Positions 5,978 through 64,000 of a stretch of DNA of 64,000 bases are shown here, one piece after another. The position numbers and the translations under genes were made by a program. The notes under the pieces are model-generated. The model was not told where the DNA came from. It saw only the letters and a program-made list of their open reading frames with translations, and did not search any database. Position 1 is the stretch's first letter; each line of letters starts with the position of its first letter. The stretch lies in NCBI GenBank assembly GCA_002753465.1, contig PEAF01000004.1, positions 474 to 64,473 on the forward strand, given 5' to 3'. The stretch is from Candidatus Omnitrophota bacterium. GTDB taxonomy: Bacteria > Omnitrophota > Gorgyraeia > Zapsychrales > Fredricksoniimonadaceae.

Positions 5978-6120
5978 TTCGCCAAGCTATAGCCCTTGTT
6001 CATGCCCTGTGGCTCAGACAGTCCTCGCGCATCCATTTTTGAAGAATGTTGAATGAGGAAGGAAAATGGATGGCTGCGGAACTCGCCCTTAGGGCATGAA
6101 CGGCGGGCTGCTTGTCGAAT
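5978..6120 (+). repeat. Structured intergenic repeat, copy 1 (long imperfect hairpin)
   Basis: ttcgccaagctatagcccttgttcatgccctgtggctcagacagtcctcgcgcatcc...ggatggctgcggaactcgcccttagggcatgaacggcgggctgcttgtcgaat. Near-identical to 50254-50400 and 53523-53676. Confidence 0.9.
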
Positions 6121-7322: not shown

Positions 7323-9101
7323 ATGATCTATCTGGCGCGCCGGAACTTCCAGTATCTTATCGGAGGTGTCGTGGCCATGCTGGTTTCCACGGTTTTTGAA
7401 GGGGCGCAGTTGGGAGCCATTGTTCCTTTGGCCGACCGTATTTTTAACAACAAACTTATCGTTCTTCCTAAAGGTATGCCGCCGTTTGTGATGGAGTGGG
7501 CGGAAAAGCTTAATGACCTTGACCGCAACCAGATCTTTTACGGCATTATCTTCATTATTCCGCTTTTTATTTTATTGAAGGGTGTTTGTTTTTATATTCA
7601 GGGCTACATGATGAATCAGGTGGCCCAGAAGTCCGTTGCTGATACGCGCGGCGATCTGTTCCGTAAATACCAGCAATTATCCCTGGATTTTTATAGCCAG
7701 AAGCGTCAGGGTGAACTCATGTCGCGCATCACGAATGATGCCGGGTTTATCGGCACCGCGATCTCGTATGGTTTGACGGATGTTGTCTATCAATCGTTCC
7801 TGGCTGTGATGTTCACTGTCATTGCGATCACGATCAGCTGGAAAATGGTGCTGATCGTGCTGGTTGTTTTTCCGCTGAATGCGCTGATGATCTATAGCAT
7901 CGGCAAAACGATCAAAAAGCAGTCGTTGTACTCCCAGGAGTCGATGGCTGACCTTAACTCCATACTTGCAGAAACAAATCAGGGCGTATCGATCGTTAAG
8001 GCTTTTTCACGTGAAGAGCATGAGATCGGGCGTTTTGATGAGATCAATAAGCGTTATTACAAATCTGTCGTTAAAGGTATCCGCCGTAACTTATTAATGA
8101 CGCCTGTCGCGGAACTGCTGGCCGCGATAGCGGTCGTTATCGTTTTCTGGGTGGGTGGAAAACAGGTCATGAAAGGCGATATGTCTTTTGGTGTTTTCCT
8201 GCTTTTCCTCACAGCCTTGATGAGCATTTTGCGTCCTATCAAAAAGTTGACCGCGGTGTATGGCATTATCCAGCAGGCGATTGCCTCAACGCAGCGGCTT
8301 TATGATATTTTCGACTGGAAGCCGTCTATCGTTGATTCACTGGCGGCAGTCGTGGCGCACCCTCCCGAGAAATATATCCGCTTTCATGATGTATCGTTCA
8401 AGTATGAGAAGAAGGAAGAACGCTGGATCATCAAGAATTTCTCGCATGATTTCGAGATCGGCAAGACCACGGCTTTGGTTGGTCCGACAGGTTGCGGTAA
8501 AACGACGATCATGAACATGATCTTGCGTTTCTATGATGCGGACAAGGGGGTCGTCCTTTTTGACGATCAGGATATCAAACAGGTCACGATCAATTCATTG
8601 CGCCAGCATGCCGGCCTGGTGACACAGGACATGATCCTTTTCAATGAGACCATCCGCGAGAATCTGCGTTATGGAAAACTGGATGCGACCGATCAGGAAC
8701 TTCATGAGGCAGCCCGTCAGGCACTGGCGTCCGAGTTCATTGACCGTTTGCCTAATGGATTGGATACCGTCGTGGGTGATCGCGGGTTCAAACTTTCCGG
8801 CGGACAGAAACAGCGCTTATGTATTGCGCGCGCTATTTTAAAGAATCCCAAGATCCTTCTTCTGGATGAAGCCACTTCAGCGCTGGATGCTGAAAGTGAA
8901 TATTTCGTTCAGCAGGCGCTGGATAATCTGATGAAGAACCGCACGGTCATTGTGATCGCGCACCGGCTTTCGACCATTCGCCACGCATCATGCATCATTG
9001 TGATGGATCAGGGGCGTGTGGTGCAAAAAGGCGAGCATGATGATCTTATGAAATCTTCGGAGCTTTACGCACGCCTGGCGAGTTATCATTTCAATCAATG
9101 A
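7323..9101 (+). CDS. ABC exporter, fused permease/ATPase (MsbA-like)
   Basis: Six-TM N-terminal half. Walker A GPTGCGKTT, signature LSGGQKQRLCIARA, Walker B ILLLDEATSALD. The track start at 7272 is TTG and overlaps the upstream gene; ATG 7323 is preferred. Confidence 0.8.
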   Translation: MIYLARRNFQYLIGGVVAMLVSTVFEGAQLGAIVPLADRIFNNKLIVLPKGMPPFVMEWAEKLNDLDRNQIFYGIIFIIPLFILLKGVCFYIQGYMMNQVAQKSVADTRGDLFRKYQQLSLDFYSQKRQGELMSRITNDAGFIGTAISYGLTDVVYQSFLAVMFTVIAITISWKMVLIVLVVFPLNALMIYSIGKTIKKQSLYSQESMADLNSILAETNQGVSIVKAFSREEHEIGRFDEINKRYYKSVVKGIRRNLLMTPVAELLAAIAVVIVFWVGGKQVMKGDMSFGVFLLFLTALMSILRPIKKLTAVYGIIQQAIASTQRLYDIFDWKPSIVDSLAAVVAHPPEKYIRFHDVSFKYEKKEERWIIKNFSHDFEIGKTTALVGPTGCGKTTIMNMILRFYDADKGVVLFDDQDIKQVTINSLRQHAGLVTQDMILFNETIRENLRYGKLDATDQELHEAARQALASEFIDRLPNGLDTVVGDRGFKLSGGQKQRLCIARAILKNPKILLLDEATSALDAESEYFVQQALDNLMKNRTVIVIAHRLSTIRHASCIIVMDQGRVVQKGEHDDLMKSSELYARLASYHFNQ

Positions 9102-10081
9102 AAAAGATCCTGGCCTTTAGAAATGATCGTTTCGGCGAGTTTTTGCTGAATATTCCGGCGTTCCGCGCGATCAAAGAAATTTATCCCGAGATCGAATTGC
9201 ATGTTGTGGTGGCGCCTTCGGTTGAGGGGATTGCCGGATCCGTGCCGTTCATTGATAAAGTTTTGGTGCGACCATCAGGTCCTTGTCCGTGGTGGGAAGA
9301 TATGGCCCTCATCGGCGGCTTGAGGCGTGAAAAATATGACGCGGCGGTAGTCCTTAATCCTTCCCGTGAGGCCCATCAGATCATTTTCTGGGCCCGCATA
9401 CCCGTTCGTGTTGGATACTCCCGCAAACATCATTTTCTGCTTACTAAGACGCTGGAAGACCATAAGCATCTGGGTTTACATCATGAAGTGGATAATAATT
9501 TGGACCTAGTGAAGTTGCTGGGCGCATCGACAGCAGATAAAACATTACAGTTAAATATTCCGGCGGATGTCAAAGCGGCTGTTGTTAAGAAGTTCAGCCT
9601 TGATCCGCATGAGGCTATGGTGGCCGTGCATCCATGGACAAGTGATCCTGTAAAACAATGGCCGCTGGAAAGATTCAAAGAGTTGGTTGATGGTCTGGCT
9701 AAAGACTTTCCGGGGAAGATCCTGATCATTGGAAAACCTGAGCCCTGGCATGATGAGTCTGCATTCCCCTCCCCCTTGTGGGGAGGGGTTGGGGAGGGGG
9801 GATGTTCGCGTATCATCGATTTGCGCGGAAAAACTTCTTTGCTTGAGGCCGCGGCTGCGTTGAGTTTTTGCCGTTGCCTGGCTTCCTGTGACAGCGGGCC
9901 GATGCATCTGGCCAGCGCGGTCGGCACGCCGGTTGTGGCCTTGTTCAGGAATGATATGCCAGGCAAGAACCCCAAGCGTTGGGGACCGTGGGGTGAAGGG
10001 CATATCGTTATCCAGCAGGCATCCATGGATGCGATCACGGTTGACAATGTTCTTCTTGTACTCAAAAGTAAACTCGGTTAA
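9098..10081 (+). CDS. Glycosyltransferase family 9 (heptosyltransferase-like)
   Basis: ILAFRNDRFGEFLLNIPAFRAIKE N-terminus and DSGPMHLASAVGTPVVALF C-terminal motif. ATGA overlap with the ABC gene. Confidence 0.75.
   Translation: MKKILAFRNDRFGEFLLNIPAFRAIKEIYPEIELHVVVAPSVEGIAGSVPFIDKVLVRPSGPCPWWEDMALIGGLRREKYDAAVVLNPSREAHQIIFWARIPVRVGYSRKHHFLLTKTLEDHKHLGLHHEVDNNLDLVKLLGASTADKTLQLNIPADVKAAVVKKFSLDPHEAMVAVHPWTSDPVKQWPLERFKELVDGLAKDFPGKILIIGKPEPWHDESAFPSPLWGGVGEGGCSRIIDLRGKTSLLEAAAALSFCRCLASCDSGPMHLASAVGTPVVALFRNDMPGKNPKRWGPWGEGHIVIQQASMDAITVDNVLLVLKSKLG
9766..9801. repeat. G/C-rich palindromic mini-element embedded in frame in the GT9 gene
   Basis: cccctcccc-cttgt-ggggagggg followed by ttggggagggggg. 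Encodes FPSPLWGGVGEGG in a linker region. Confidence 0.7.
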
Positions 10082-12365: not shown

Positions 12366-13130
12366 ATGAAAGATGCTAGAGAATCGTATCGCGATTATTA
12401 TAAAGAGCAGGCCACGGCCATAGGCGGGGATGAGCGTTTTACCTGGGTCATGCAGGAGATCCTTAAAGACGTTTCCGGCAAGAAGGTCCTTGATGTCGGG
12501 TGTGGTGAGGGGACTTTACTGAGGATGTTACGCGATGCCGGCAATGAAGTGCAGGGTGTTGATGCGGCCCAGACCGGCAAAGACCTGTGTGTCAGTAAGG
12601 GGTTGCCGTGTGAGGTTGTTGATATCAGCCGCGGGGCGTTTCCTTTGGCAGATGATGCGTTTGATGTGGTCCTTTGTTTAGAGACATTAGAACATTTGGA
12701 GAATCCGTATCACTGTATCAGCGAGATCAAGCGCGTCCTGAAAAAGGGCGGGATGTTTGTGGCGAGTATCCCGAATCCCAAGAGTTTGCACGGATATATT
12801 TATCCAGGGCTTTTTGAGTTTGATAATTTCGAAGCTTTCCTTGAGCTTAACGGATTTAAAGTCACGCGTCAGGCCTGGTGGGGGCAGAACACCATGTTCA
12901 ATGGCCTGTCCCGTCGTCTGGCGGCGTGCGGGTGTACGTGGGGACAGGGGTTGGAACGGTTCATCTATTATTTGAGCCGTAAGCGCAATGCCTTTCTGCG
13001 CAATCATTGTTCAACACCCAGGGATTGGTGCTGGTCGTTGAATTTTGTATGTGTCAATGAGGTTAAACATACGGATGTTCTTCATGAGATCGCTGTAGAA
13101 ACGACGCCCAGCGATAAAAGGCGTTCTTAA
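12366..13130 (+). CDS. Class I SAM-dependent methyltransferase
   Basis: VLDVGCGEGTLLRML and FDVVLCLETLEHL. Confidence 0.7.
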   Translation: MKDARESYRDYYKEQATAIGGDERFTWVMQEILKDVSGKKVLDVGCGEGTLLRMLRDAGNEVQGVDAAQTGKDLCVSKGLPCEVVDISRGAFPLADDAFDVVLCLETLEHLENPYHCISEIKRVLKKGGMFVASIPNPKSLHGYIYPGLFEFDNFEAFLELNGFKVTRQAWWGQNTMFNGLSRRLAACGCTWGQGLERFIYYLSRKRNAFLRNHCSTPRDWCWSLNFVCVNEVKHTDVLHEIAVETTPSDKRRS

Positions 13131-25581: not shown

Positions 25582-27279
25582 ATGATCCAAAACATTTTTC
25601 TTACGGCTTTATTATCACTGATCGCCCTTCGTCTGGGTATCTGGAAGCTTTTTCCGGCGATGGAGTTCTCGATCAAGGATGAATTTTCAAATATGATCAT
25701 CGCCGGGTTGATCTTTGCCGTGGCCCTGGCTTTTTACGGTTTGAAGTGTATTCGCCGTGAAGCGTTGGGCCGCAGCGGGTTCGAAGGGCCGTTAGCACTT
25801 TTACTCATCGCCGCGGCCGTGTCTATGCCATGGACGGCGGATGTGTCATCCAGTGTCAGCGCGATGATCGTTTTGGTGGCGTACATACTGTTTTTTCATA
25901 TGCTTTTTGAAACGCTGCTCTATGCACGATCAAGGCAGATATTCCTGTGGTTTTTTGCCGCATGTTCTCTTGTCGTCGCGCTCATTGGCATTAACGATAT
26001 CATTTATTTGAGCAGTGTCCCGGCGCAGGAAATAGAGAATGCCCGGCTCACCAATGAAAGCCTTTATTATATTCTGATCAATAAACGTGCCTGCTCGCTT
26101 TTGGGTTGGCCTAATGTCCTGGCAGGATTCCTGATGCTGGGGATGCCTGTTGCGGCAGGGCTTTTTGTGATCGCAAGGCAGTGGGCGTTAAAGGTGTTGT
26201 GCATTATCAGTGCCGCCGTCATGTTGACCGCCTTTTTCTTTACCTACTCTTTTCTGGGCTGGAGTGTGTTCTTGTTCACGGCCACTATCATGGTTTTTAT
26301 TCTATGGCGTTCCGGATTTTTAAGGATCCCCCCTAAAATGGGCCCATGGGTGATGGCAGGGATCTTTCTGTTGATGGTGTTATTCTCGGTCGTTGTGATC
26401 AGGAAGAATTTCGCCTCGTCGATCTCGCCGCGTAAAGAGTATGCGCGTGTTGTCGCATCCGTGATCACCGAGCACCCCTGGCGCGGCGTTGGTTTCGGGG
26501 CGTATCGTGCCGCTTCGCTTAAGTTTGTCGATAACCGCGAAGGCCTCACAGGTTTTGCGCATAACGCTTATCTTCAGATCTGGGCTGAGGCAGGGATCGC
26601 GGCCTTGATTGCCGTCATTTGGTTGCTTTTTTTGATGGCCAGGGGATCGTGGCGGGCATGGCTGGCTCCGGGGGAGCGTGATCACAAGCTCATGCTGGCG
26701 GTTGTCGTGTGGGGTATGCTGGCTTTTCTGATCGATAATCTGAACAGTTTTACCATGCTTAAACCTAACAGCTCATTCTTTTTCTGGACGTGGCTGGCGG
26801 TTGTTGCCAGCTTTATTTACCGTACGCCTCCGGTTTGTGCGCGTTGGCTGGCATTGGCTTTTCTGCCGGTTTGTATTGTCGGGATATTCTTGTCGGCACG
26901 CTGCGCAGGGTATTTAAATTGGTTGCAAAAAAGCGTTCAGGCGGTCAATGCCGGCCAGCTTAAGGAAGGGCGCGCGGCGATGGCACATGGCCAAGCGCTT
27001 AATCCGCTGGACGTCAGGGTATGGACAGCGCTGGGTATGTCATATTTGCAGGAATTTCAACGTACGCAAGAGAGGTCTGCCTTGGAAAGAGCGCAGGCTG
27101 CCTTTGAGCGGGCCGCGAAGATCGCACCGAATTTCTACCACAGTTTCTTGATCTTAAGCCGTATCCACGCATTTAAGGGGGATATGCTGCAGGCCTCAGC
27201 GTTGCAGCAGAGGGCCATAGCTATTTCTCCATATGAAACACAGCGTGACCTGTTATTGTCCCAGGGTGCACAGCGGTGA
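25582..27279 (+). CDS. O-antigen ligase (Wzy_C) family membrane protein with C-terminal TPR repeats
   Basis: Ten or more TM segments, FAHNAYLQIWAEAGI motif, and a TPR-like tail (ALNPLDVRVWTALGMSYLQ..). Confidence 0.65.
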   Translation: MIQNIFLTALLSLIALRLGIWKLFPAMEFSIKDEFSNMIIAGLIFAVALAFYGLKCIRREALGRSGFEGPLALLLIAAAVSMPWTADVSSSVSAMIVLVAYILFFHMLFETLLYARSRQIFLWFFAACSLVVALIGINDIIYLSSVPAQEIENARLTNESLYYILINKRACSLLGWPNVLAGFLMLGMPVAAGLFVIARQWALKVLCIISAAVMLTAFFFTYSFLGWSVFLFTATIMVFILWRSGFLRIPPKMGPWVMAGIFLLMVLFSVVVIRKNFASSISPRKEYARVVASVITEHPWRGVGFGAYRAASLKFVDNREGLTGFAHNAYLQIWAEAGIAALIAVIWLLFLMARGSWRAWLAPGERDHKLMLAVVVWGMLAFLIDNLNSFTMLKPNSSFFFWTWLAVVASFIYRTPPVCARWLALAFLPVCIVGIFLSARCAGYLNWLQKSVQAVNAGQLKEGRAAMAHGQALNPLDVRVWTALGMSYLQEFQRTQERSALERAQAAFERAAKIAPNFYHSFLILSRIHAFKGDMLQASALQQRAIAISPYETQRDLLLSQGAQR

Positions 27280-48882: not shown

Positions 48883-50253
48883 ATGGAATTTCGCACAGAA
48901 CATGACATGTTGGGTGAGAAGAATATTCCGCTGAAAGCTTATTGGGGCATTCATACGCAACGTGCATTGGAGAATTTCCCTTTGTATTCTGGTGTTGTGT
49001 CGTTGCCACTGATGAAAGCCATGGCCATGGTCAAGAAAGCCTGTGCGCTGGCGAATAAGGACTTGGGATATTTAACACCTGAGAAAGCTTCAGTCGTTAT
49101 AAGTGTGTGCGATGAGATCATGGCTGGCAAGTTGAATGACCAGTTTCCCCTGGATGCACTGCAGGGCGGGGCGGGGACATCGACGAACATGAATTTGAAT
49201 GAGGTCATCGCCAATCGCGGCCTCGAGATCATGGGGCGCGCCAGGGGTGATTATGCGGCGCTCCATCCTTTGGAGGATGCGAATCTACATCAATCGACCA
49301 ATGATGTTTATCCGACGGCGCTGAAGGTGGCTTTAATCCTGGGTGTTAGGTCTTTAAGCGAGACAACAGCGCTGCTGCAAGGTGCTTTTCAGCGTAAGGA
49401 AAAAGAATTCGCCGGTATCATCAAGTTGGGGCGTACCGAGATGCAGGATGCCGTGCCGATCACCTTAGGCGCTGAGTTTTCCGGCATGGCTGAAGCGGTT
49501 TCGAGAGACCGCTGGAGAACGTTTAAATGTGAGGAGCGCTTACGGGTGGTTAATATTGGCGGCACAGCCGTGGGGACAGGGCTTGGTGCGCCGCGTGATT
49601 ACATTTTTCTGGTCATTGAGAAGTTGCGTGAGGTTACAGGGCTTGGTGTTTGCCGGGCTGAGAATATGATGGGCGATACGGCGCATGCGGATACGTTCGT
49701 TGAGGTGTCAGGGATACTCAAGGCGCATGCCGTCAATATCCTGAAGATCTCGAATGACTTGCGCTTGATGAATATGCTGGGTGAAATTGTGTTGCCATCG
49801 GTGCAGGCTGGCTCATCGATCATGCCGGGCAAAGTTAATCCTGTGATATTAGAGGCAGTGTCGCAGGCCGGCCTTAAAGTGATCGCGCAGGACGGTCTTG
49901 TAACGCAAGCGGCATCGCGCGGCACCGGGCAGATCATTGAATTCATGCCGCTATTGGCGGATGCGCTTTTAGGGGCGGTTGATCTTTTGGTCAAGGCGGA
50001 TGGGATGCTGACAGCACATATCGATGGGATCAAAGCGGATGAAGATCGCTGCCGGCATTATGTTGACAGAAGCCGGACGCTCATTACGGCGTTTGTTCCT
50101 GTGGTGGGGTATGACCGTTGTCAGGCCTTGCTGAAAGAATTTGATGATATTAAGGAAGATAATTTGCGTGCGTTCCTTAACCGGAGGTTGGGTGTGGAGA
50201 TTGTCAATAAAACATTGGCGCCGCATAATCTTGTCGGATTAGGACATAGATAA
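48883..50253 (+). CDS. aspA: Aspartate ammonia-lyase (class II fumarase/aspartase family)
   Basis: TEHDMLGEKNIPLKAYWGIHTQRALENFP and signature GSSIMPGKVNP. Confidence 0.8.
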   Translation: MEFRTEHDMLGEKNIPLKAYWGIHTQRALENFPLYSGVVSLPLMKAMAMVKKACALANKDLGYLTPEKASVVISVCDEIMAGKLNDQFPLDALQGGAGTSTNMNLNEVIANRGLEIMGRARGDYAALHPLEDANLHQSTNDVYPTALKVALILGVRSLSETTALLQGAFQRKEKEFAGIIKLGRTEMQDAVPITLGAEFSGMAEAVSRDRWRTFKCEERLRVVNIGGTAVGTGLGAPRDYIFLVIEKLREVTGLGVCRAENMMGDTAHADTFVEVSGILKAHAVNILKISNDLRLMNMLGEIVLPSVQAGSSIMPGKVNPVILEAVSQAGLKVIAQDGLVTQAASRGTGQIIEFMPLLADALLGAVDLLVKADGMLTAHIDGIKADEDRCRHYVDRSRTLITAFVPVVGYDRCQALLKEFDDIKEDNLRAFLNRRLGVEIVNKTLAPHNLVGLGHR

Positions 50254-50400
50254 TGATTCGCCAAGCTTTGGCCCTCGTTCATGCCCTGTGGCTCAGACAG
50301 TCCTCGCGCATCCGCTTTTGAAGGATGTTGAATGAGGAAGGAACGCGGATGGCTGCGGAACTCGCCCTTAGGGCATTGAACTTCGGGCCGCTTGTTGAAT
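50254..50400 (+). repeat. Structured intergenic repeat, copy 2
   Basis: tgattcgccaagctttggccctcgttcatgccctgtggctcagacagtcctcgcgcatccgc...gcggatggctgcggaactcgcccttagggcattgaacttcgggccgcttgttgaat. Confidence 0.9.
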
Positions 50401-50414
50401 GAAATACGCGAGAC

Positions 50415-50459
50415 GCCTTCGAAAGACGACAAGGGCATCACGACGGCGGCAGGACCCGC
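50415..50459. repeat. Inverted-repeat arm B (partner 48558-48602)
   Basis: gccttcgaaagacgacaagggcatcacgacggcggcaggacccgc. Sits in a ~66-nt insert that copy 2 carries relative to copy 3. Confidence 0.85.
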
Positions 50460-50489
50460 GAAGCGACTGTGAAGGATGAGAGGAATATT

Positions 50490-51749
50490 ATGGATAAAAC
50501 ACCAAAATCATTAAGGCTTCAGATCGGCATTTTCGGCCGGACCAATGTGGGCAAGTCAAGTTTGCTTAACATGGTCGCGGGGCAGGACGTGGCCATTACA
50601 TCCGCTGTGGCTGGGACGACGACAGATGTGGTGGAGAAGGCCATGGAACTGCTGCCATTAGGCCCCGTGATGTTCCTGGATACGGCAGGGCTTGATGATG
50701 ATTCTCTCCTGGGGGAAAAGCGTATTGAGCGCACACGGCGCGCGCTGGACCGCTGTGATATTGCTTTGTTAGTCGTTGAGCCCGGGATCTGGGGGGTATG
50801 CGAAGTGCAGTTTGCTGAAGAGCTTAAGGCTAAAAAGAAGCCACTGATCATTGTTATTAATAAGGCGGACATAAAGTCGATCGCTGATGATTTCATGCAA
50901 GTTCTTCAAGCGATAACAGATAAGGTTATCGTTGGTTCAAGCGTCGTCACGGCCCAGCGCGAAGCATTTTTACAGGCGTTCAAGCTTTGCCTGATCCAGA
51001 CCTGTCCGGAGGATTTTTTAAGACCGCCGACGCTATTGGGGGATCTTGTTCCCGCTGGTGGCGTGGCCGTTCTGGTCGTGCCGATCGATCTGCAGGCGCC
51101 GAAGGGGCGACTCATACTGCCGCAGGTGCAGGCGATCCGTGACGGACTGGATAATGATGCTGTTGTAGCGGTTGTTAAGGAGCGTGAGTATGCGGCGTTC
51201 CTGCAGAATCTAAAAAGTAAGCCTGCGGTGGTTGTGTGCGACTCACAGGTGGTAATGAAAATGGTCGCAGATACGCCCTTGGATGTGAAATGCACGACAT
51301 TCTCGATTCTTTTCGCGCGATACAAGGGCGATCTGGTCGAGATGGCCAAAGGTGCGGCGCATATTGAAGCGCTCAAACCGGGGGATAAGGTCCTGATCGC
51401 GGAAAGTTGTTCACATCATGCGGCTGAAGATGATATCGGACGGGTCAAGATCCCGCGCTGGCTGCGTCAATATGTCGGCGGTGATCTGGTGGTCGATCAT
51501 TTTGCGGGACGTGATTATCCCAAGGACCTTGAACAGTACAAACTTATTGTGCACTGCGGTTCGTGTATGTTAACGCGTGGTGAGATGTTGTGGCGTATCC
51601 ATCAGGCCAAAGAAAGAGGAGTACCGATTACAAATTATGGCGTCGGGATATCTTTAGTTCAGGGTGTATTGAAACGTGTTCTTTCGCCATTTCCGGCGGC
51701 GTTGGATGCGTTTGAAAAAGAAGTAGCTCAGGTAATTTCCGCGCTATAG
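50490..51749 (+). CDS. hydF: [FeFe]-hydrogenase maturation GTPase
   Basis: GRTNVGKSSLLN G1 motif. C-terminal cluster motif ESCSHH...HCGSC. The track start is GTG 50469. Confidence 0.9.
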   Translation: MDKTPKSLRLQIGIFGRTNVGKSSLLNMVAGQDVAITSAVAGTTTDVVEKAMELLPLGPVMFLDTAGLDDDSLLGEKRIERTRRALDRCDIALLVVEPGIWGVCEVQFAEELKAKKKPLIIVINKADIKSIADDFMQVLQAITDKVIVGSSVVTAQREAFLQAFKLCLIQTCPEDFLRPPTLLGDLVPAGGVAVLVVPIDLQAPKGRLILPQVQAIRDGLDNDAVVAVVKEREYAAFLQNLKSKPAVVVCDSQVVMKMVADTPLDVKCTTFSILFARYKGDLVEMAKGAAHIEALKPGDKVLIAESCSHHAAEDDIGRVKIPRWLRQYVGGDLVVDHFAGRDYPKDLEQYKLIVHCGSCMLTRGEMLWRIHQAKERGVPITNYGVGISLVQGVLKRVLSPFPAALDAFEKEVAQVISAL

Positions 51750-51844
51750 GCTTTGGCAAAGGATTCCGGCTCAGGAGCGCCCGTCCTTTTTGGGATGGAA
51801 ATGCGGGTGGAAGGACGTCCGCAATTCGCCGTCATCCTTTTGCC
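51749..51844 (+). repeat. Diverged fourth member of the structured repeat family
   Basis: ggcaaaggat..ccggctcag..gcgcccgtcc-tttttgggatggaaatgcgggtggaa-ggacgtccgc..aattcgcc..atccttttgcc. Same architecture, with the stems replaced by different complementary sequences. Confidence 0.65.
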
Positions 51845-51972
51845 TGCAGCCTGCGCGGATTAAACGCTTTCCTGATTTAAAGCTGAAGGCATGCCGCAGA
51901 TGCGAGTTTGGAAACCAAGCTTTCAACAATGTTCTTTAGAAAAAGCTGTTTCCACTGTCTGAGCAGCCAGGT

Positions 51973-53520
51973 ATGCCGAAAGCTTTAGAAATCAGGAAAG
52001 ATAAACAAGTTAGAGGTGGTCATATGAATAAAGCGACAGGATTGAATGGATGGGCTGGTCAGCGGATCAAGCCGGATCAGATAACGAAGTACATGGACCA
52101 GGGCCGTGATTTTATTAATGACGGCGATATTGAAGCTAAGCTCGCGGCGTTCTCGGGTGAGCCTGAACCGGCGCAGGTGCGCGCTATTCTGGCTAAATCT
52201 ATGGCCGTTAAGGACCTTTCGCTCGATGAGGTGGCGATCCTTATCAGGGTCAATGACAAGAAGATGCTTGAGGAAATGCGTCAGACCGCGTTGGCCCTCA
52301 AGATCAAGATCTATGACAATCGTATTGTGACCTTCGCGCCCTTTTATTTAGGTAATTATTGCGTGAACAGATGCGCGTATTGCGGGTTCAATAACGATAA
52401 TACGGCAGCGACACGCACAGTACTAGATACAGATGCTATCCGCCGGGAAATTGCGGTCCTCGCGGGAGAGATTGGGCACAAGCGCCTTATTGCGGTCTAT
52501 GGCGAGCATCCAAAGAATGATGTTGATTATGTGATCGAAAGCCTTAAAACGATCTATTCGGTCAAGGTCAAGACCAAGAACGGCACAGGAGCAATCCGAC
52601 GGGTCAATGTTAACGCACCTCCTTTTTCTATTGAGGACCTCAAGAAGATCAATGAGGCGGGCATCGGTACGTATCAGGTTTTTCAGGAGACCTATCATAA
52701 AGAGACCTATGCCAAGATGCATCCGGCAAATACGATCAAAGGCGATTATAACTGGCGCTTGTACAGCATGCATCGCGCCATGGAGGCGGGCATTGATGAT
52801 GTCGGTATCGGCGCGCTTTTTGGGCTTTATGACTGGCGTTTTGAACTGATGTCACTTGTTTGCCACACCCAGGCGCTTGAAAAGCGCATGGGCATTGGCG
52901 CGCATACGATCTCATTCCCGCGCGTGGTACCGGCGCTTAATTCCGTGATCACGCCAGACTGGCCGTATCTTGTTTCTGATGATGATTTTAAGAAGATCAT
53001 GATGATCATCCGTCTGGCCGTGCCTTACACCGGCATGATCGTGACGGCGCGCGAAAAGGCCGAGATACGTAACGAGGCTGTCTTGATGGGCATCACCCAG
53101 ATGGACGCATCATCGCGCATTGCTGTCGGTGGGTATTCTGATTGTGTGACCGCCCAGAAGGAGGACAAACAGCAGTTTATTTTGGGGGATACACGTTCTT
53201 TGGATGAACTTATCCGTGATCTGGCGCAGATGGGCTTTATCACATCTTTTTGCACCGCGGGCTATCGTTGCGGACGTACCGGCAAATGCATCATGGATCT
53301 TTTAAGAAGCGGCACCGAGGGGAAGTTCTGCAAGCTTAATGCCGTGCTCACATTTCAGGAATGGCTGGATGATTTTGCCACAGAGGACACACGACGCCTG
53401 GCGCAGCCGCTCATCGACCGTGAGGTCGCTGAGATCAAGGCCAAGAATCCGCAGACGCTGGATATCTTTATGAATTATTATGAGCGGGTGAAGAAGGGTG
53501 AGAGGGATCTTTATTTATAA
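51973..53520 (+). CDS. hydG: [FeFe]-hydrogenase maturation radical SAM tyrosine lyase
   Basis: CVNRCAYCGF (CX3CX2C) and a C-terminal Cys region FCTAGYRCGRTGKC..FC. Alternative ATG 52024 sits behind AGAGGTGG. Confidence 0.88.
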   Translation: MPKALEIRKDKQVRGGHMNKATGLNGWAGQRIKPDQITKYMDQGRDFINDGDIEAKLAAFSGEPEPAQVRAILAKSMAVKDLSLDEVAILIRVNDKKMLEEMRQTALALKIKIYDNRIVTFAPFYLGNYCVNRCAYCGFNNDNTAATRTVLDTDAIRREIAVLAGEIGHKRLIAVYGEHPKNDVDYVIESLKTIYSVKVKTKNGTGAIRRVNVNAPPFSIEDLKKINEAGIGTYQVFQETYHKETYAKMHPANTIKGDYNWRLYSMHRAMEAGIDDVGIGALFGLYDWRFELMSLVCHTQALEKRMGIGAHTISFPRVVPALNSVITPDWPYLVSDDDFKKIMMIIRLAVPYTGMIVTAREKAEIRNEAVLMGITQMDASSRIAVGGYSDCVTAQKEDKQQFILGDTRSLDELIRDLAQMGFITSFCTAGYRCGRTGKCIMDLLRSGTEGKFCKLNAVLTFQEWLDDFATEDTRRLAQPLIDREVAEIKAKNPQTLDIFMNYYERVKKGERDLYL

Positions 53521-53522
53521 CA

Positions 53523-53676
53523 ATCTCGACAAGCTTTGGCCCTCGTTCATGCCCTGTGGCTCAGACAGTCCTCGCGCATCCGTTTCTTCAGGATTTTGAG
53601 GGCGGAGGAAGAAAACGGATGGCTGTGGAACTCGCCCTTAGGGCATTGAACTTCGGGCCGCTTGTTGGCTGTGAAG
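53523..53676 (+). repeat. Structured intergenic repeat, copy 3
   Basis: ctcgacaagctttggccctcgttcatgccctgtggctcagacagtcctcgcgcatccgtttcttc...gaagaaaacggatggctgtggaactcgcccttagggcattgaacttcgggccgcttgttggc. Confidence 0.9.
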
Positions 53677-53727
53677 GATGTAAGGAGGCATGCTGATGGC
53701 GAACAATTGGCGTGGAGGAATGTGGTT

Positions 53728-54720
53728 ATGAATCGTGATGAGATCATTGAGAATCTGATGACAGACAGACCGGCGGCGCTGTTTGGCGAGGCGGACCGCG
53801 TGCGCCGTTTGCATGTGGGCAATGCCGTGCATCTGCGCGGGCTCATTGAATTCTCCAATGTCTGCGGACGTGATTGCATTTATTGTGGTATACGCCGTTC
53901 AAATCATGGTGTGGCCCGGTACAAGATGTCCACGGGCGAGATCTTTGACGCCGCAGCTTACGCGGTGGGCCTGGGGTTTAAAAGTTTGGTTCTTCAGTCG
54001 GGTGAGAGCGGTCAATATTCAACTGATGAGATGGTTGCGCTTATCGGCCGTATCAAGCAAGCGTTCGGTGTAGCGATCACGCTTTCCATGGGAGAGAAAA
54101 CGCGCGTGGAATATGCTGCGCTTAGGCAGGCTGGTGCTGACCGTTACCTTTTGCGCTTTGAAACATCCTGTGAGAAGCTTTTTATTAAGCTCAAACCAGA
54201 TTCAGTTTACGCCGATCGGATCCAATGCCTGAGCTGGCTGCGTGAGGTGGGGTTTCAGGTCGGGTCTGGCATTATGGTCGGGCTTCCCGGGCAGACTGAA
54301 GAGATGATCGCCGATGATATTCTTCTCATGCGTGAGCTTGATCTGGACATGGTGGGTTTTGGCCCTTTTATTCCTGACCCTAATACGCCGCTAAAAGGTG
54401 TCGGAGGCGGGTCACTGGGGCTTACGTTACGCACCTTGGCGCTTATCCGTATCGTGATGCGTAATGTGCACATCCCAGCTACCACGGCCATGGGAACGAT
54501 CGATCCTAATGGGCGCCAAAGAGCCCTCGAAGTGGGTGCGAATGTCTTGATGCCCAATGTTACCCCGACACGATACCGCGAAATGTACCAGCTCTATCCC
54601 AATAAGCCGGGGCTTAAGCAGGCGCCCAGTGATACGTTCGAGACCTTGCGCGCTTTGGTTCATTCGGTAGGGCGTACGGTCGCCACAGATCCCGGGCATA
54701 GCCTTAAACGGTCGGCGTAG
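53728..54720 (+). CDS. hydE: [FeFe]-hydrogenase maturation radical SAM enzyme
   Basis: HLRGLIEFSNVCGRDCIYCGIRR. GGAGGA 8 nt before ATG 53728. The track start, TTG 53662, lies inside the repeat. Confidence 0.88.
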   Translation: MNRDEIIENLMTDRPAALFGEADRVRRLHVGNAVHLRGLIEFSNVCGRDCIYCGIRRSNHGVARYKMSTGEIFDAAAYAVGLGFKSLVLQSGESGQYSTDEMVALIGRIKQAFGVAITLSMGEKTRVEYAALRQAGADRYLLRFETSCEKLFIKLKPDSVYADRIQCLSWLREVGFQVGSGIMVGLPGQTEEMIADDILLMRELDLDMVGFGPFIPDPNTPLKGVGGGSLGLTLRTLALIRIVMRNVHIPATTAMGTIDPNGRQRALEVGANVLMPNVTPTRYREMYQLYPNKPGLKQAPSDTFETLRALVHSVGRTVATDPGHSLKRSA

Positions 54721-58694: not shown

Positions 58695-59353
58695 TCGATT
58701 ATCCGGGCAAGGTGGCGGCGGTAATTTTCACCCAGGGGTGCAATTACCGCTGCCCCTTTTGCCATAATCCCGCGCTGGTCCTGCCGGAGTTGTTCACCGC
58801 ATCGATCGATGTCGCTGAGGTCATGGCGTTCCTGCACAAACGCCGGGGCCAGTTGCAGGGCATCGTCATTACCGGCGGAGAACCCACCCTTCACCCTGAC
58901 CTTAAAGAGTTCATCCGTACGATCAAACAGATGGGCTTCCTTGTCAAATTAGATACCAATGGTTCACGCCAGGATGTCCTTAAGGATATTCTGTCCGAAA
59001 AACTTGTCGACTACGTCGCCATGGATATCAAGTCATCGCTCGAAGGATATTGTAAGGCTTCCGGCGTGGCAGTCGACTTGGAGAGTGTTAAAGCATCTAT
59101 TGCTCTTATCAAAGCGTCGGGTGTAGACTATTCATTCAGGACCACGGCCGTTAGAAATTTTGTTTCACCGGAAGATCTGAAGGCCATTGGGGTCCTTTTG
59201 GATAATCCGTTGAGGTATAAACTTCAGCGCGGCAATTTGAGCGGTAAGGTTTTGGATCCCGGCATTCAGGATGGCCCGCATGATTTCTCTGACGATGAAT
59301 GGGCTGCGATGCAAAATGTCTATGCCGGCATTGAACGCAAATTGAAAGAATAA
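58661..59353 (+). CDS. nrdG: Anaerobic RNR activating radical SAM protein
   Basis: FSLIDYPGKVAAVIFTQGCNYRCPFCHNP. Overlaps the nrdD 3' end by 34 nt. Confidence 0.85.
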   Translation: MLIGGLLKFSLIDYPGKVAAVIFTQGCNYRCPFCHNPALVLPELFTASIDVAEVMAFLHKRRGQLQGIVITGGEPTLHPDLKEFIRTIKQMGFLVKLDTNGSRQDVLKDILSEKLVDYVAMDIKSSLEGYCKASGVAVDLESVKASIALIKASGVDYSFRTTAVRNFVSPEDLKAIGVLLDNPLRYKLQRGNLSGKVLDPGIQDGPHDFSDDEWAAMQNVYAGIERKLKE

Positions 59354-60114: not shown

Positions 60115-60621
60115 ATGAGAAAGTTTGCTATGGGGGTTATTTTAGCCGCAGGGATGATCGTTACGTTTAATGCTTCTTCGGTGTTTGCCCAGGAGAATAC
60201 GGATGATAAATTTTCGTTCGGTAAGGTTGTAAGCGTCACGAGCGCATCGATCGTTGTTAAAGAATATGATTTTGCTAAAGATGCTGATGTCGAAATGACT
60301 TATGCGGTTACAGCCGAAACAGAGTTAGGTAATGTTAATGCCGTTACAGATCTCGTGGCCAATGACGATGTCGTCATTGATTATGCTGACAAAGACAGTA
60401 AGCGCGTTGTTTTGACGCTTGTTAAAGAAGATAAGGGTGCAGAAGCTCCGGCAGCTGGTGAAGCGACAGAGCAGGCTCCGGCAGCGCCGGCAGCAGAGGC
60501 AGCTCCTGCGGAGGCTGCAGCGCCGGCAGCAGAGGCAGCTCCTGCGGAGGCTGTAGCGCCCGAAGCCCCCGTAGCTCCTAAGGCGTCAGTTAACGCCGAA
60601 GCTGCTCCGGTTCAGCCATAA
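60115..60621 (+). CDS. Secreted protein with an Ala/Pro/Glu-rich C-terminal tail
   Basis: Signal peptide MRKFAMGVILAAGMIVTFNASSVFA. Tail APAAPAAEAAPAEAAAPAAEAAPAEAVAPEAP. Confidence 0.55.
   Translation: MRKFAMGVILAAGMIVTFNASSVFAQENTDDKFSFGKVVSVTSASIVVKEYDFAKDADVEMTYAVTAETELGNVNAVTDLVANDDVVIDYADKDSKRVVLTLVKEDKGAEAPAAGEATEQAPAAPAAEAAPAEAAAPAAEAAPAEAVAPEAPVAPKASVNAEAAPVQP
60481..60552 (+). repeat. Perfect 36-bp tandem duplication inside the Ala/Pro/Glu tail
   Basis: gcagcgccggcagcagaggcagctcctgcggaggct occurs twice back to back (60481-60516 and 60517-60552). Confidence 0.85.
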
Positions 60622-61111: not shown

Positions 61112-64000
61112 ATGCGTAAGATCCTGGTATTTATTATTTTAGCGACTTTTATCACGAATGTTTTCGTGCCGCCATCTTGTGCCCAGATACTGATGTCACA
61201 TCCGGGGGAAATGGTGGCTTTAAGCCAGACCTTCCGGCCGTCCCTGTTGACGGGCGTGAAGATCTATGCCCATGATCCGTTCCGGATTGATTTTATTATG
61301 GACAGGGGGGACGAGGGCAAGAGTGTCGATGCGAATCGTCTTGTTAAATATTTTCTTGCGTCTTTAGCTGTTCCTGAAAAAGACCTATGGGTCAATTTGT
61401 CGCCCTATGAGAAAGATCGCATTGTACCTGCAGCCTTTGGCCAGACTGAAATGGGGCGGGATCTTTTAGCACAGGATTATTTTCTAAAGCAGCTGACAGC
61501 GAGTTTAATGTACCCCGAGGGTGATTTAGGCAAGAAGTTTTGGTCTGAAGTTTACCGCCAGGCGCAGGCTAAATTCGGAACAACGGATATTCCTGTCGAT
61601 ACGTTTAATAAGGTCTGGATCACACCAGCTAAGGTTGAGGTTTTTGAGAATAAGGGTGTGGCGTATGTGGTCGATGCAAAATTAAAGGTGATGCTGGAAG
61701 CGGATTATGTATCGATGGGCAATACGGTGGGTGTAGGGGAGGACCTTGTGTCCTCACCAAAAAGGGCGGACATAAAGTCCGCCCCTACACAAAACATGAC
61801 ACAGGCGCTTATCCGTCAGATCATTCTTCCTGCACTGGAAAAAGAAGTTAACGAAGGAAAAAGTTTTACTCAACTCCGTCAGGTTTATAACTCACTGATC
61901 CTGGCCACATGGTTCAAACGAAAAGTAATTCAATCCGACCTGTGGCGAAATTATGCCGACCAGAATAAAGTCGTCGGGATAAATATTGCCGACCCGCAGG
62001 AATCAGGGAAGATCTGGGTGAAGTACGTCGAAGCGTTCAAGAAAGGCGCTTATAATTTTATCAAGGAAGAGAAGGATGCGGCTTCGGGTGACGTTGTGCC
62101 GCGTAAATATTTCTCCGGCGGGTTTGATATGGCGCAGGTAGGCTCATTGATGAGCATTGTCAAAAAGATCGAACCCAAAAAGATGGCGGCACAAGGCCAT
62201 GCCGATAATATGCTGGTCAATATTAAGATCATGCCGTATTCAGTTAAGCCCCAAAAGCGTACGGCCTCCGCTGGGGATATGGCGCAGCAGCAGGCCTATG
62301 CCATCTTGCGGAGGGCTGAAAATGCCTACCGCAACATTTATCAGGAACCTGAGTTGTTTGATCTATTGCCTGGGAGTAAGTTTAATCAGGGCAAGCAGAC
62401 ATTTTCATTGGTTGAGAATGTTCGCGAAGCGATTTATAAAGGGCTGGTTAATCTTGCGAAGATATCCGAACAAAGGACCGCAGATGCCGATCTGCTTAAA
62501 TGTTTCTTCGGGATAAGTGGTTCGTTAAATTATTTGCGTGAACGTGATGGGACGGTTTATTGGGACGGCGTGAACGATCTGGATATTATCATTTCTTTGC
62601 CGTATCCATTGTCAGACAGCAGCAAGAATGTCATTACACAGGAAATATCCAAAGTTTTGGAAGGTCAGGGAATAAATATTTCTTATCATGCGGTTTTTCT
62701 AGATACGTTTGGTTCTGGTTACCGTAACAATATAGATTGGTTGTATGCTAACTTTTCAGACACCACGTATTTCAGGCTGGATAACAAGGCTCCGCTTAAG
62801 AAGGCTTTTGATGTTTTGAACTACGGCAGGCTTGTGTTGCAGCAGTACGCTGAAATTTACGCGGGGATGGACAAGTATGTATCTTGGCACAGGTTGAGTG
62901 ATACGGCATCGCTGATGAAGGTTTTGAAACGCATCCTTGTTTTAGCCAGGCTGCGTGGTGATATGGAAATGGAGGCAGAGCTCTTCGATCTTATTAAGAA
63001 AGTGATCAAGGGGCAGGTTGATATTTCAACGGATGAATTTATCAAGAAAGTAGAGCAATATAAATCAAACGTCAGGCCGCACTTTAAAAGAGATGATGGT
63101 TCGTTGCATGCGCATTCGTATGTTCATGGGAAAAACATTTGGGATAGGGCTCAAACTTCTTTAATCGTGAACGAAGATATCTCCTTGGATTCTGAAAAAG
63201 CACAGACTTTAACCGGAGCACTGGCTGACCCAGAGTTAAGGTCGATCCCAGAATCCCAACGCCTTAAGATGATCGCCAAGGCTGGATTGGCGGCATTAAC
63301 AGCCGAAGAAGTTGCCCAACTAAATGAAATTATTCCGCAGTTTGATTGGAGGACCGCATCGTTGGTTCCTTGGACGGAGTGTGTAAGGGACGATCAAATG
63401 CAGCCAGTTCCCGAGAGTGAGAATCAGGTTGTTTATTGGGATAATTTGACGGCGGCGAGACGGGAATTCCTGGGGATGATCGTAAAGTTTGCATTGAAAC
63501 AGATCCCTGATGTTGAGGCATTCCGGAAGATACTGGAGGGGATTCATAAAAAGGTTTTGATCCACCGTGATGGCAGGGTTTACAGATCGGCTGACAATTT
63601 TGATATGAAGGAGGATGTGGCTAAAGGGTGGGCGGGAGTATTGATCAAGGAAGATATTAATTCTGCCAGGGTGCAGGAGTTATTTCAGTATTTTCAGCGG
63701 CTTGTTGATTTTGGGTTAACGCGCCCCAAGCTTGTGGCATGGATAGGGCAGGTTGGATTGATCTATCATAAGTTGATCTGGCAGAATTTGTTTTATTATG
63801 GCAATAATTCAATGGCGATGGACATTAACAATGGATTCTTGCGGTTTTTTCTTCCGTTGGGTATTTCCCATAATGAACTTGATCAGAAGGCACGCCGGTC
63901 ATCTGTTATCGATCCAAGGTTCATACCTGATTATGTGGCAAGGGTAAAGAGGACCAATTGGCGCGTCCCTTTTTATTTGGAGCAGACCATGGATCAGGCG
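61112..64000 (+). CDS. Large secreted protein of unknown function, 3'-truncated by the window edge (>963 aa)
   Basis: My translation from ATG 61112 stays open to base 64000 (2889 nt, 963 codons). Signal peptide MRKILVFIILATFITNVFVPPSCA. Absent from the ORF track, presumably because no stop lies in the window. Confidence 0.7.
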   Translation, partial: MRKILVFIILATFITNVFVPPSCAQILMSHPGEMVALSQTFRPSLLTGVKIYAHDPFRIDFIMDRGDEGKSVDANRLVKYFLASLAVPEKDLWVNLSPYEKDRIVPAAFGQTEMGRDLLAQDYFLKQLTASLMYPEGDLGKKFWSEVYRQAQAKFGTTDIPVDTFNKVWITPAKVEVFENKGVAYVVDAKLKVMLEADYVSMGNTVGVGEDLVSSPKRADIKSAPTQNMTQALIRQIILPALEKEVNEGKSFTQLRQVYNSLILATWFKRKVIQSDLWRNYADQNKVVGINIADPQESGKIWVKYVEAFKKGAYNFIKEEKDAASGDVVPRKYFSGGFDMAQVGSLMSIVKKIEPKKMAAQGHADNMLVNIKIMPYSVKPQKRTASAGDMAQQQAYAILRRAENAYRNIYQEPELFDLLPGSKFNQGKQTFSLVENVREAIYKGLVNLAKISEQRTADADLLKCFFGISGSLNYLRERDGTVYWDGVNDLDIIISLPYPLSDSSKNVITQEISKVLEGQGINISYHAVFLDTFGSGYRNNIDWLYANFSDTTYFRLDNKAPLKKAFDVLNYGRLVLQQYAEIYAGMDKYVSWHRLSDTASLMKVLKRILVLARLRGDMEMEAELFDLIKKVIKGQVDISTDEFIKKVEQYKSNVRPHFKRDDGSLHAHSYVHGKNIWDRAQTSLIVNEDISLDSEKAQTLTGALADPELRSIPESQRLKMIAKAGLAALTAEEVAQLNEIIPQFDWRTASLVPWTECVRDDQMQPVPESENQVVYWDNLTAARREFLGMIVKFALKQIPDVEAFRKILEGIHKKVLIHRDGRVYRSADNFDMKEDVAKGWAGVLIKEDINSARVQELFQYFQRLVDFGLTRPKLVAWIGQVGLIYHKLIWQNLFYYGNNSMAMDINNGFLRFFLPLGISHNELDQKARRSSVIDPRFIPDYVARVKRTNWRVPFYLEQTMDQA
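61731..61790. repeat. Compound palindromic mini-element embedded in frame in the large ORF
   Basis: gtgtaggggaggac-cttgt-gtcctc-accaaaaa-gggcggac-ataaa-gtccgcccctacac. Two hairpins flanked by gtgtagggg / cccctacac. Encodes GVGEDLVSSPKRADIKSAPT. Confidence 0.7.

Follow-up and report, generated by a model that had tools for sequence, protein, structure and literature searches.

REPINs are thought to be mobilised by RAYT tyrosine transposases and the repetitive extragenic palindromic (REP) families are usually specific to a genus or species, while transposition of the IS200/IS605 HUH type leaves neither inverted-repeat consensus ends nor a target duplication. ERIC and Correia repeats are 100-160-bp imperfect palindromes in transcribed intergenic regions, Correia elements in addition duplicating TA and ending in conserved inverted repeats of 26 bp, and attC sites act as folded single-strand hairpins of variable sequence, with functional unpaired bases, strand-specific folding and conserved outer R''/R' boxes (RYYYAAC/GTTRRRY) that are mutually complementary. 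REPIN hairpins are in part conserved only as hairpins and not in sequence (PMC3337134), and what is conserved in them are the REP 25-mers at their ends, which bear GTAG or CGTC tags (PMC3733652). Here we analyse a structured element in the spacer between the hydrogenase maturation genes hydF and hydG, in a 64-kb window of a Candidatus Omnitrophota genome (assembly GCA_002753465.1, contig PEAF01000004.1, positions 474 to 64,473; the window is this whole 64,000-nt stretch of one contig, and positions are counted from its first letter). An earlier interpretation, which we call the sequence-only reading, had taken nucleotides 51749-51844 for a functional structured RNA of this spacer rather than a mobile element, a claim contradicted by synteny, dispersal, orientation, nesting, a flip between orthologous sites and a damaged core. 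In the explanation that we favour, the stretch flagged there forms the middle of a copy, c4, of a non-coding and dispersed hairpin repeat that behaves as mobile DNA in a REPIN- or MITE-like manner (MITE stands for miniature inverted-repeat transposable element), and we consider it probable that the family is a mobile hairpin repeat, that c4 is a relic of it and that it has no role specific to the hyd genes. In its behaviour the family comes closest to REPINs or ERIC/Correia-type hairpin repeats, yet it fails the defining features of those systems, and it appears to be undescribed.

The letters at 51749-51844 are those quoted in the sequence-only reading, and the blocks GGCTCAG and AAYTCGCC on which it relied are present at all four places claimed (near 6011, 50290, 53558 and 51768); a pattern made from the quoted blocks matches four times in the window against 0.11 matches expected by chance. 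To examine homology without circularity, we built a covariance model of the A-type subfamily (R1) from the window copies c1 to c3 and one copy of another Omnitrophota contig (L001) only, leaving c4 out, and searched the whole window unfiltered. The model recovers c4 from end to end on the + strand at 43.3 bits (E 5e-9), the best non-family match in the window reaching 20 bits, and c4 is accordingly homologous to c1-c3 as proposed. Its true span, 51739-51858, is larger than the extent assigned to it before. The complementarity of the outer arms likewise exceeds chance, with a duplex energy of -30.2 kcal/mol that was reached in 0 of 2000 shuffles, and the description of c4 as a copy with a replaced yet still complementary stem, and not a recent copy, is borne out.

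Written on the + strand, c4 opens with an outermost stem CCGCGC/GCGCGG, which covers the final codons of hydF and its stop, and continues with the stems AGGCU/AGCCU, GGCAAAGGAU/AUCC(U)UUUGCC and GGC/GCC; the loop strands are a shortened UCAGGA on the 5' side, where ACAGUCCUC is lost, and AAUUC on the 3' side, and the upper part (GCG-CC-CGUCC/GGACG-UC-CGC) carries a purine-rich apical loop of 26 nt. The stems had been called unrelated to those of c1-c3, which is correct for the wholly replaced 10-11-bp middle stem (P2) and incorrect for the inner stem, where CAUCC/GGAUG in c1-c3 and CGUCC/GGACG in c4 differ by one compensated pair and GCGC is common to both. The unpaired blocks, in turn, are only partly retained, as c4 is without ACAGUCCUC and has AAUUCGC instead of AACUCGC: its core reads GCUCAGGAG ... 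AAUUCGC against the family core GCUCARACAGU ... AACUCGC and is thus not intact, the lesions fall in the otherwise most conserved part of the family, and the GCUGCGG counterpart of the lost ACAGUCCUC is shortened relative to A-type copies. Two further proposals fail. The likeness of the apical loops is one of composition only, the alignment scores against the c1-c3 loops being equalled by ~40% of shuffles and that against the L001 loop by 8%, and the architecture proposed for the + strand RNA lies at -44.2 kcal/mol against a minimum free energy of -58.0, that is, 13.8 kcal/mol worse; on the - strand the minimum free energy fold (-56.9) takes the family architecture. A family-wide covariance model built from 38 diverse seeds (R2) leaves c4 unreported at E<1, while c1, c2, c3 and the fifth window copy, c5, score 60-79 bits. 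Similar decay is seen in model-found copies elsewhere (AAUUCGC in L094 on the - strand, ACAUCC in L123 and ACAACC in L102), and the fetched loci, which total 0.85 Mb, hold no second c4-like copy. On the evidence of R1, the model that recognises it, we file c4 as a putative degenerate relative of the A-type subfamily; it is best read as an old copy of an A-type-related lineage with a good hairpin and a broken recognition loop, and it is probably an immobile relic because ACAGUCCUC is lost and the loop carries a C-to-U change.

The count of four copies in the sequence-only reading had overlooked c5, a B-type copy on the - strand of the same spacer (51871-51996), which was found in the R1 search (23.4 bits, match 51877-51994) and scores 63.9 bits with R2 (E 4e-17). 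Its core is intact (GCUCAGACAGU ... AAACUCGC on the - strand), with the arms cctgattt/aaatcagg, aaagct/agcttt and ggcatacc/ggcatgcc and the upper stem GGAAAC/GUUUCC. The + strand c4 and the - strand c5 stand tail to tail, and the same succession of an A-type and an inverted B-type copy occurs in L001 (369-485 on the + and 529-657 on the - strand), with unrelated sequence at the junction. The 275-nt hydF-hydG spacer consists of c4 and c5, and the flanking genes have the identities given earlier: hydF (50490-51749, + strand) encodes HydF_dimer and HydF_tetramer domains, and hydG (52024-53520, + strand; radical SAM and BATS domains) has its start codon 28 nt past c5.

Comparison with relatives, whose hyd loci were gathered through HydF homologues, shows this spacer to be a peculiarity of one lineage rather than a shared feature of the operon. 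The hydF and hydG genes overlap in L002 (HydF 87% identical to that of the window), by 4 nt in L004 and L005 (87% each), and also in the P0010 contig (78%), L128 (77%) and L129 (76%); they lie 2 nt apart in L003 (87%), and L127 (80%) has an unrelated 84-nt spacer. Because the relatives' genes overlap or are 2 nt apart, we regard the 275-nt spacer as a lineage-specific insertion. The sequence-only reading had expected the element to be conserved in the hydF-hydG spacers of relatives and had itself named its absence there as evidence against it; the spacer is absent from seven relatives. R2 detects no family element in the hyd loci L002, L004, L005, L127, L128 and L129, L002 being also without a match to R1, and among the hyd loci fetched by HydF the family is present only in L003, as an A-type copy between hydG and hydE like c3 of the window. 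The HydF C-terminus records the event as well: the window protein ends in EKEVAQVISAL (51725-51749) and that of L003 in EKEKRIL, the two diverging after EKE, exactly where the element begins. The last ~8 hydF codons of the window (VAQVISAL and the stop) are unlike those of the relatives, and the stop codon comes from the outer stem of c4. Insertion of c4 and c5 would have replaced the hydF C-terminus and broken the hydF-hydG overlap, and in the hyd mRNA the two copies may act at most as generic stable intercistronic hairpins; we regard these effects on the operon (two stable mRNA hairpins, a new hydF C-terminus and the lost overlap) as incidental.

Other repeats occupy the hyd spacers of the relatives. 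In L002, the closest relative, ~32-nt REP-like hairpins of the GTAG type (TAGAGACG..CGTCTCTA) lie in the lyase/hydF and hydG/hydE spacers (5577-5610 and 8530-8561), the positions of c2 and c3 in the window, and the family itself is absent. In L003, a different repeat of ~40 nt (ggctttaaaag.acc.caaggcctacgcaaagcagtaat) is found in the same two spacers (9892-9932 and 12911-12951) and adjoins the A-type copy of that contig.

The wider family was collected by a metagenome scan with the pattern GCTCARACAGT..TTTT..AACTCGC, which yielded at least 120 stretches, and all family counts given here are among the matches listed. It is a large and widespread family of ~100-150-nt intergenic hairpins, with at least 79 matches that have complementary flanking arms and, in the listed loci, at least 96 matches to R2 at E<=0.01, most of them at 45-98 bits. 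On the strand used in the sequence-only reading, each member consists of a 5' arm, GC, UCARACAGU, a variable upper hairpin, (R)AACUC, GC and a 3' arm. A conserved asymmetric internal loop (GCUCARACAGU/AACUCGC) thus separates a freely varying lower stem from the variable upper hairpin, UCARACAGU standing opposite AACUC (on the complement, GAGUU opposite ACUGUYUGA) within a G-C/C-G clamp; since the scan pattern fixes the core, its invariance in the metagenome sample is partly by construction. The arms are absent from the pattern, and the bases after ACAGU (CCUCGC...) and before AACUCGC (...GCUGCGG) are likewise unspecified; a CCUCGC/GCUGCGG extension is common to a large subfamily. Arm length has a median of 24 nt (interquartile range 22-28, 10th to 90th percentile 21-37; 52 arm classes, loci L006-L125), a narrow spread, as though it were measured from the internal loop, and the minimal upper hairpin is a capped helix of 6-7 bp (L115, L102).

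The covariation that the sequence-only reading had invoked is real, and the family hairpin is clearly under selection. In an alignment of 42 copies fitted to R1, which leans toward the model used to fit it, 93.3% of cells are paired against 61.7% in column shuffles and 39-47% with slid partners, and in 37 of the 40 pairs both partners change; model-free alignments of the arms give the same picture, with 1585 of 1708 arm positions Watson-Crick paired (93%). Even copies with near-identical centres, such as those of L051 and L031, differ at about half of their arm positions, and the differences are compensated. The wholly replaced middle stem of c4 accords with this general pattern. Such divergence is expected if the stems of master lineages drift while pairing is maintained, every burst being copied from the master of its time.

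The residual mismatches point to a particular strand. Among the transition mismatches of the outer arms, read on the core strand, A.C outnumbers G.U by 59 to 16, and by 41 to 10 after similar arms are collapsed, with more A.C than G.U in 23 arm clusters and fewer in 5; the tolerated pairs are therefore wobble pairs on the complement, 5'-GCGAGUU...ACUGUYUGAGC-3'. In 60 of 79 members this complementary strand is also the one that folds at lower energy, and its loop can begin with G.A pairs in tandem, set in a Y-GA-R context. Strand-asymmetric wobble and folding together argue that one particular single strand is what selection sees; in the case of c1-c4 it is the one antisense to the hyd genes. 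In DNA, too, G.T and tandem G.A pairs are stable, for which reason the wobble asymmetry fails to separate RNA from single-stranded DNA.

Window-type copies are found in Omnitrophota. A copy in L064 (72% G+C) lies beside a gene whose product is 80% identical to Krumholzibacteriota proteins, and the gene next to a copy of the termite-gut-type subfamily in L072 has its nearest named relatives in Oscillospiraceae (68% identity); with the phylum of each metagenome member placed by one neighbour gene, the same core is present in at least two phyla, Omnitrophota and a Krumholzibacteriota-like one, and probably in a third that is Clostridia-like. The neighbours, read from crude simple open reading frame (ORF) calls in the metagenome loci, are mostly ordinary and unrelated housekeeping genes (sugar nucleotide enzymes, a tRNA-binding protein, UPF0047, an ABC permease, GH65, acetolactate-synthase-like and methyltransferase genes), and an all-versus-all BLAST of 821 flanking ORFs gave no recurrent neighbour other than the hyd genes of L094 and L113. 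Relative to co-directional flanking ORFs, 17 copies have the same and 12 the opposite orientation. About one locus in eight (~10 of ~85) holds a second copy, which, with the five copies in the 64 kb of the window, implies tens of copies per genome, and presence is patchy among close relatives.

The copies also combine with one another in ways suggestive of mobile or recombining DNA. At several loci a complete copy is lodged within another copy's upper hairpin and invariably points the opposite way (L097 1661-1898; L102 4948-5181; L104 6901-7163; L038 345-585, for L038/L074/L121; L052 388-627; L037 134-367), and such a nested double forms a hairpin of ~240 nt with two mirror-image internal loops (z-score -11 in L097). 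Furthermore, the orthologous lyase/hydF spacers of L113 (2170-2276) and L094 (2057-2163), whose HydF is only 56% identical to that of the window, carry the same element in opposite orientations, with a second copy upstream of the lyase gene that has the same orientation in both. This inversion points to flipping in situ or to re-insertion; flipping and near-perfect arms may also stem from recombination or template switching between arms. Flanking direct repeats are close to the shuffled control, so that target-site duplication does not rise above background, the 58 arm classes share no terminal consensus, and a search for autonomous copies, split so as to flank a gene (core halves with complementary arms 0.2-8 kb apart) found none except one nested double. 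Neighbours, orientation, density, pairing, nesting, flipping and ends all argue for mobile or recombining DNA rather than for a strand-specific cis-regulatory RNA.

Measured against the described systems, the family shares much with REPINs: both are non-coding, intergenic and multicopy, occur as inverted pairs and in clusters with subfamilies coexisting in one genome, and form a hairpin, here spanning the whole element and kept by compensated changes, without target-site duplication. However, the ends of a REPIN are conserved and its centre varies, whereas here the ends vary and conservation lies in the asymmetric internal loop; from one subfamily to another the arms and termini change, and they lack a GTAG or CGTC tag, the core spans phyla unlike that of REP families, and no RAYT gene (IS200/IS605-like Y1) lies beside any copy in the fetched loci. 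The size, the imperfect palindrome, the position within operons near stop codons in both orientations and the potential to form mRNA hairpins recall ERIC/IRU and Correia (CREE/NEMIS) repeats, although the family has no conserved terminus or duplication of the Correia kind, the comparison of sequence extending to the negative literature and Rfam searches. With attC sites it shares conserved structure, variable sequence and strand-specific folding, but its two conserved blocks are internal and not complementary, cassette arrays and a fixed orientation are lacking, and Rfam gives no attC match. MITEs derived from DDE elements are similarly small, non-coding and dispersed, with near-identical young copies (as c1-c3 are), nesting and patchy presence; they differ in that the present family has neither a family-wide terminal inverted-repeat consensus nor target-site duplications, and no parent insertion sequence is found in the 0.85 Mb of loci. 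Rfam 15, with its riboswitches, ribozymes, attC, IS605-orfB, HEARO and other families, returns no match in the window at gathering thresholds and, in a lenient search, no convincing family in the window or in 14 diverse loci; among the latter there were three weak sub-threshold matches, including mir-147 (22.6 bits, E 1.4) on the L050 element and on none of the other 13. The core words of the family gave only unrelated primer matches in the searchable literature, and a literature search on Omnitrophota repeats yielded nothing specific to them.

How might such an element propagate? The most likely mechanism, by analogy with described systems, would be non-autonomous transposition in which an enzyme acting in trans recognises the internal loop and the element passes through a single-stranded hairpin. 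The stems would then co-vary because only master lineages that keep both hairpin and loop go on propagating, and since propagation would require hairpin and loop, subfamilies would differ in stem sequence and not in architecture. The candidate route may be likened to REPIN/RAYT or IS200/IS605-type HUH tyrosine transposition, although an HUH route in particular is a tentative suggestion that we hold to be rather doubtful. A broader proposal, also speculative and with less than even chances, is that the family, as opposed to c4 itself, represents an undescribed cross-phylum class of structured mobile element whose only conserved sequence is the G-C-clamped 9-nt/5-nt asymmetric internal loop on a ~24-bp lower stem; the loop would then be the recognition or active site for a single-strand-specific mobilising enzyme, or else a catalytic or protein-binding RNA motif, and the always-inverted nested doubles and the flipping in situ would follow from the mobilising mechanism.

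Several observations weigh against a mobile hairpin repeat as we conceive it. No transposase or other mobilising gene adjoins any copy in the fetched loci, so the mechanism is drawn from analogy only. Conservation of an internal loop rather than of the ends fits neither classical MITEs nor REP/REPIN elements, and a 19-nt core kept across phyla is unusual for such repeats and would be equally compatible with a motif that serves the host as RNA or by binding protein. The inner stems are without strand asymmetry (14 versus 12), which the strand argument leaves unexplained. Finally, the family recurs in hyd clusters (the window, L003 and L094/L113) more often than we would expect from random sampling; L094 and L113 are independent loci of the pattern scan, mutually orthologous and with two copies each around the lyase gene, and the recurrence may reflect a hot spot or the sampling of related lineages.

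This recurrence is also what favours a role of c4 and of copies c1-c3 as a cis-acting RNA, whether riboregulator, attenuator or processing signal, that controls hydF, hydG and hydE: of the five window copies, four are in spacers of the hyd maturation genes, the L003 copy sits between hydG and hydE, those of L094 and L113 flank the lyase gene beside hydF, and the structure co-varies. Yet the spacer is missing in seven relatives and the hyd loci of L002, L127, L128 and L129 are without the element, c1 and most metagenome copies adjoin unrelated genes, c5 runs antisense to the operon, the copies at the orthologous site of L094 and L113 point in opposite directions, and orientation to genes is close to balanced (17:12). 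Nor does the mRNA strand of c4 favour the family-like fold, which lies 13.8 kcal/mol above the optimum, and no promoter or terminator signal marks the region 50150-53800, all of which makes hyd-specific control very improbable. Pure accident, with c4 a hairpin of other origin in which two short blocks resemble the family by chance, would account for the apical loops that are no more alike than chance and for the failure of R2 to report c4; its probability is nonetheless close to nil given the R1 E value of 5e-9 against a background maximum of ~20 bits, the four pattern matches where 0.11 were expected, a shared order of all blocks (left flank GCUAUAG, GGCUCAG, GCGC..UCC/GGA.G, AAYUCGCC) and the adjoining family member, arranged as in L001, and we exclude it on the R1 result.

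A function at the RNA level that is independent of hyd deserves more weight, although we still judge it quite unlikely: the family could be a multicopy small RNA, or a motif whose internal loop binds a conserved protein or is catalytic, such as a new self-cleaving ribozyme carried on repeats. Consistent with this, an 11+8-nt loop is kept across phyla while both flanking helices are free to vary, covariation is strong, G.U pairs are tolerated asymmetrically on the strand that folds better, tandem sheared G.A pairs (5'-CGAG/5'-UGAG) are possible on the GCGAGUU/ACUGUYUGAGC strand, and the minimal versions in L115 and L102 are reduced to arms, loop and one short helix with a cap. The copies are, however, randomly oriented with respect to transcription units and mostly inside operons, no promoters or terminators were found, Rfam contains no matching ribozyme or RNA family even at E<=5-10, the inner stems lack the asymmetry, and the same G.T and tandem G.A pairs are generally stable in single-stranded DNA. 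Unlikely, if less so, is a role as domesticated generic hairpins comparable to REP/BIME or ERIC repeats, which in either orientation would shield the mRNA upstream of them against 3' exonucleases or make the genes of an operon differ in expression. The copies do sit tightly between co-directional genes, often 0-25 nt past a stop codon, long hairpins form in both orientations, and in relatives these spacers hold palindromic repeats of other kinds (the GTAG type of L002 and the different repeat of L003); left unexplained are the conservation of one specific asymmetric loop across phyla and the strand-asymmetric mismatches, and the patchiness even among close relatives speaks against it. Such a role can coexist with the mobile-repeat explanation, which remains the one we favour.

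For the hyd operon, the hydF-hydG spacer is thus insertional clutter and not a conserved regulator. More generally, a structure supported by covariation need not be a regulatory RNA, as dispersed hairpin repeats yield a strong compensatory signal, and motif-discovery pipelines and R-scape-style tests need controls for orientation, synteny and copy number. What sets the family apart from REP, REPIN and MITE elements is that its conserved part is an internal loop common to at least two, probably three, phyla; a possible RNA-level function is the main reason for interest in it, and the 19-nt core together with R2 offers a handle for finding the enzyme or factor that recognises it.

The remaining window copies, all young A-type members on the + strand with a mutual identity of ~93% over ~130 nt, differ in their surroundings. 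c1 (5975-6120; R1 155 bits, R2 79 bits) lies between an NTP-transferase gene and a DegT-type aminotransferase gene, a locus unrelated to hyd, and the upstream stop codon falls within its left end. c2 (50254-50400; R1 162 bits, R2 66 bits) occupies the lyase/hydF spacer directly 3' of the stop codon of the Lyase_1 gene (48883-50253), and the left ends of c1 and c2 contain or abut the upstream stop codons (TGATTGATTCG, TAATGATTCG). c3 (53522-53665; R1 151 bits) is in the hydG/hydE spacer, 2 nt past the hydG stop, with hydE at 53662-54720, and the whole Lyase_1/hydF/hydG/hydE group sits downstream of a NuoE/NuoF-like [FeFe]-hydrogenase cluster. Near-identical A-type copies occur at unrelated loci and in two other metagenome-assembled genome contigs, L001 and L003; an exact 26-mer of c1-c3 has one occurrence in the species-representative genome collection, in the Omnitrophota assembly that contains L001. 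A promoter and terminator scan of 50150-53800 showed no enrichment.

A number of other candidates were set aside. A glutamine riboswitch match, the only one in the lenient searches that falls on a family element of the window, was confined to c2 (50274-50349, 18.4 bits, E 1.7; CGUUCA...GAAGGAACGC) and is judged to be chance, since neither c1 nor c3 has the CGUUCA/GAACG pairing. Small ribozymes such as the hammerhead, the k-turn, the loop E/sarcin-ricin motif, boxA/nut sites, domain IV of the signal recognition particle RNA and the integration host factor site, and with them attC R-boxes, were dropped because the resemblance extended to a few bases at most or the consensus was clearly mismatched. 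The family does not appear to be phage-borne, the strict pattern giving 0 matches in viral contigs, where a relaxed pattern used as a negative control gave 48, all at <=24 bits with R2; a BLAST search of a plasmid collection with a nested double gave chance matches only. Insertion of the element into pre-existing host hairpins was likewise rejected, the window holding no arms-only copies of A-type or c4 arms. Weak matches to R1 or R2 at 25713-25774, 59202-59268 (which, at least, lies inside a long ORF) and 61731-61790 have low scores that are not reproduced by both models and were taken as chance. Elsewhere in the window, four tandem 36-nt units at 60442-60588, two of them identical (GCAGCGCCGGCAGCAGAGGCAGCTCCTGCGGAGGCT), are probably an Ala/Pro/Glu-rich coding repeat.

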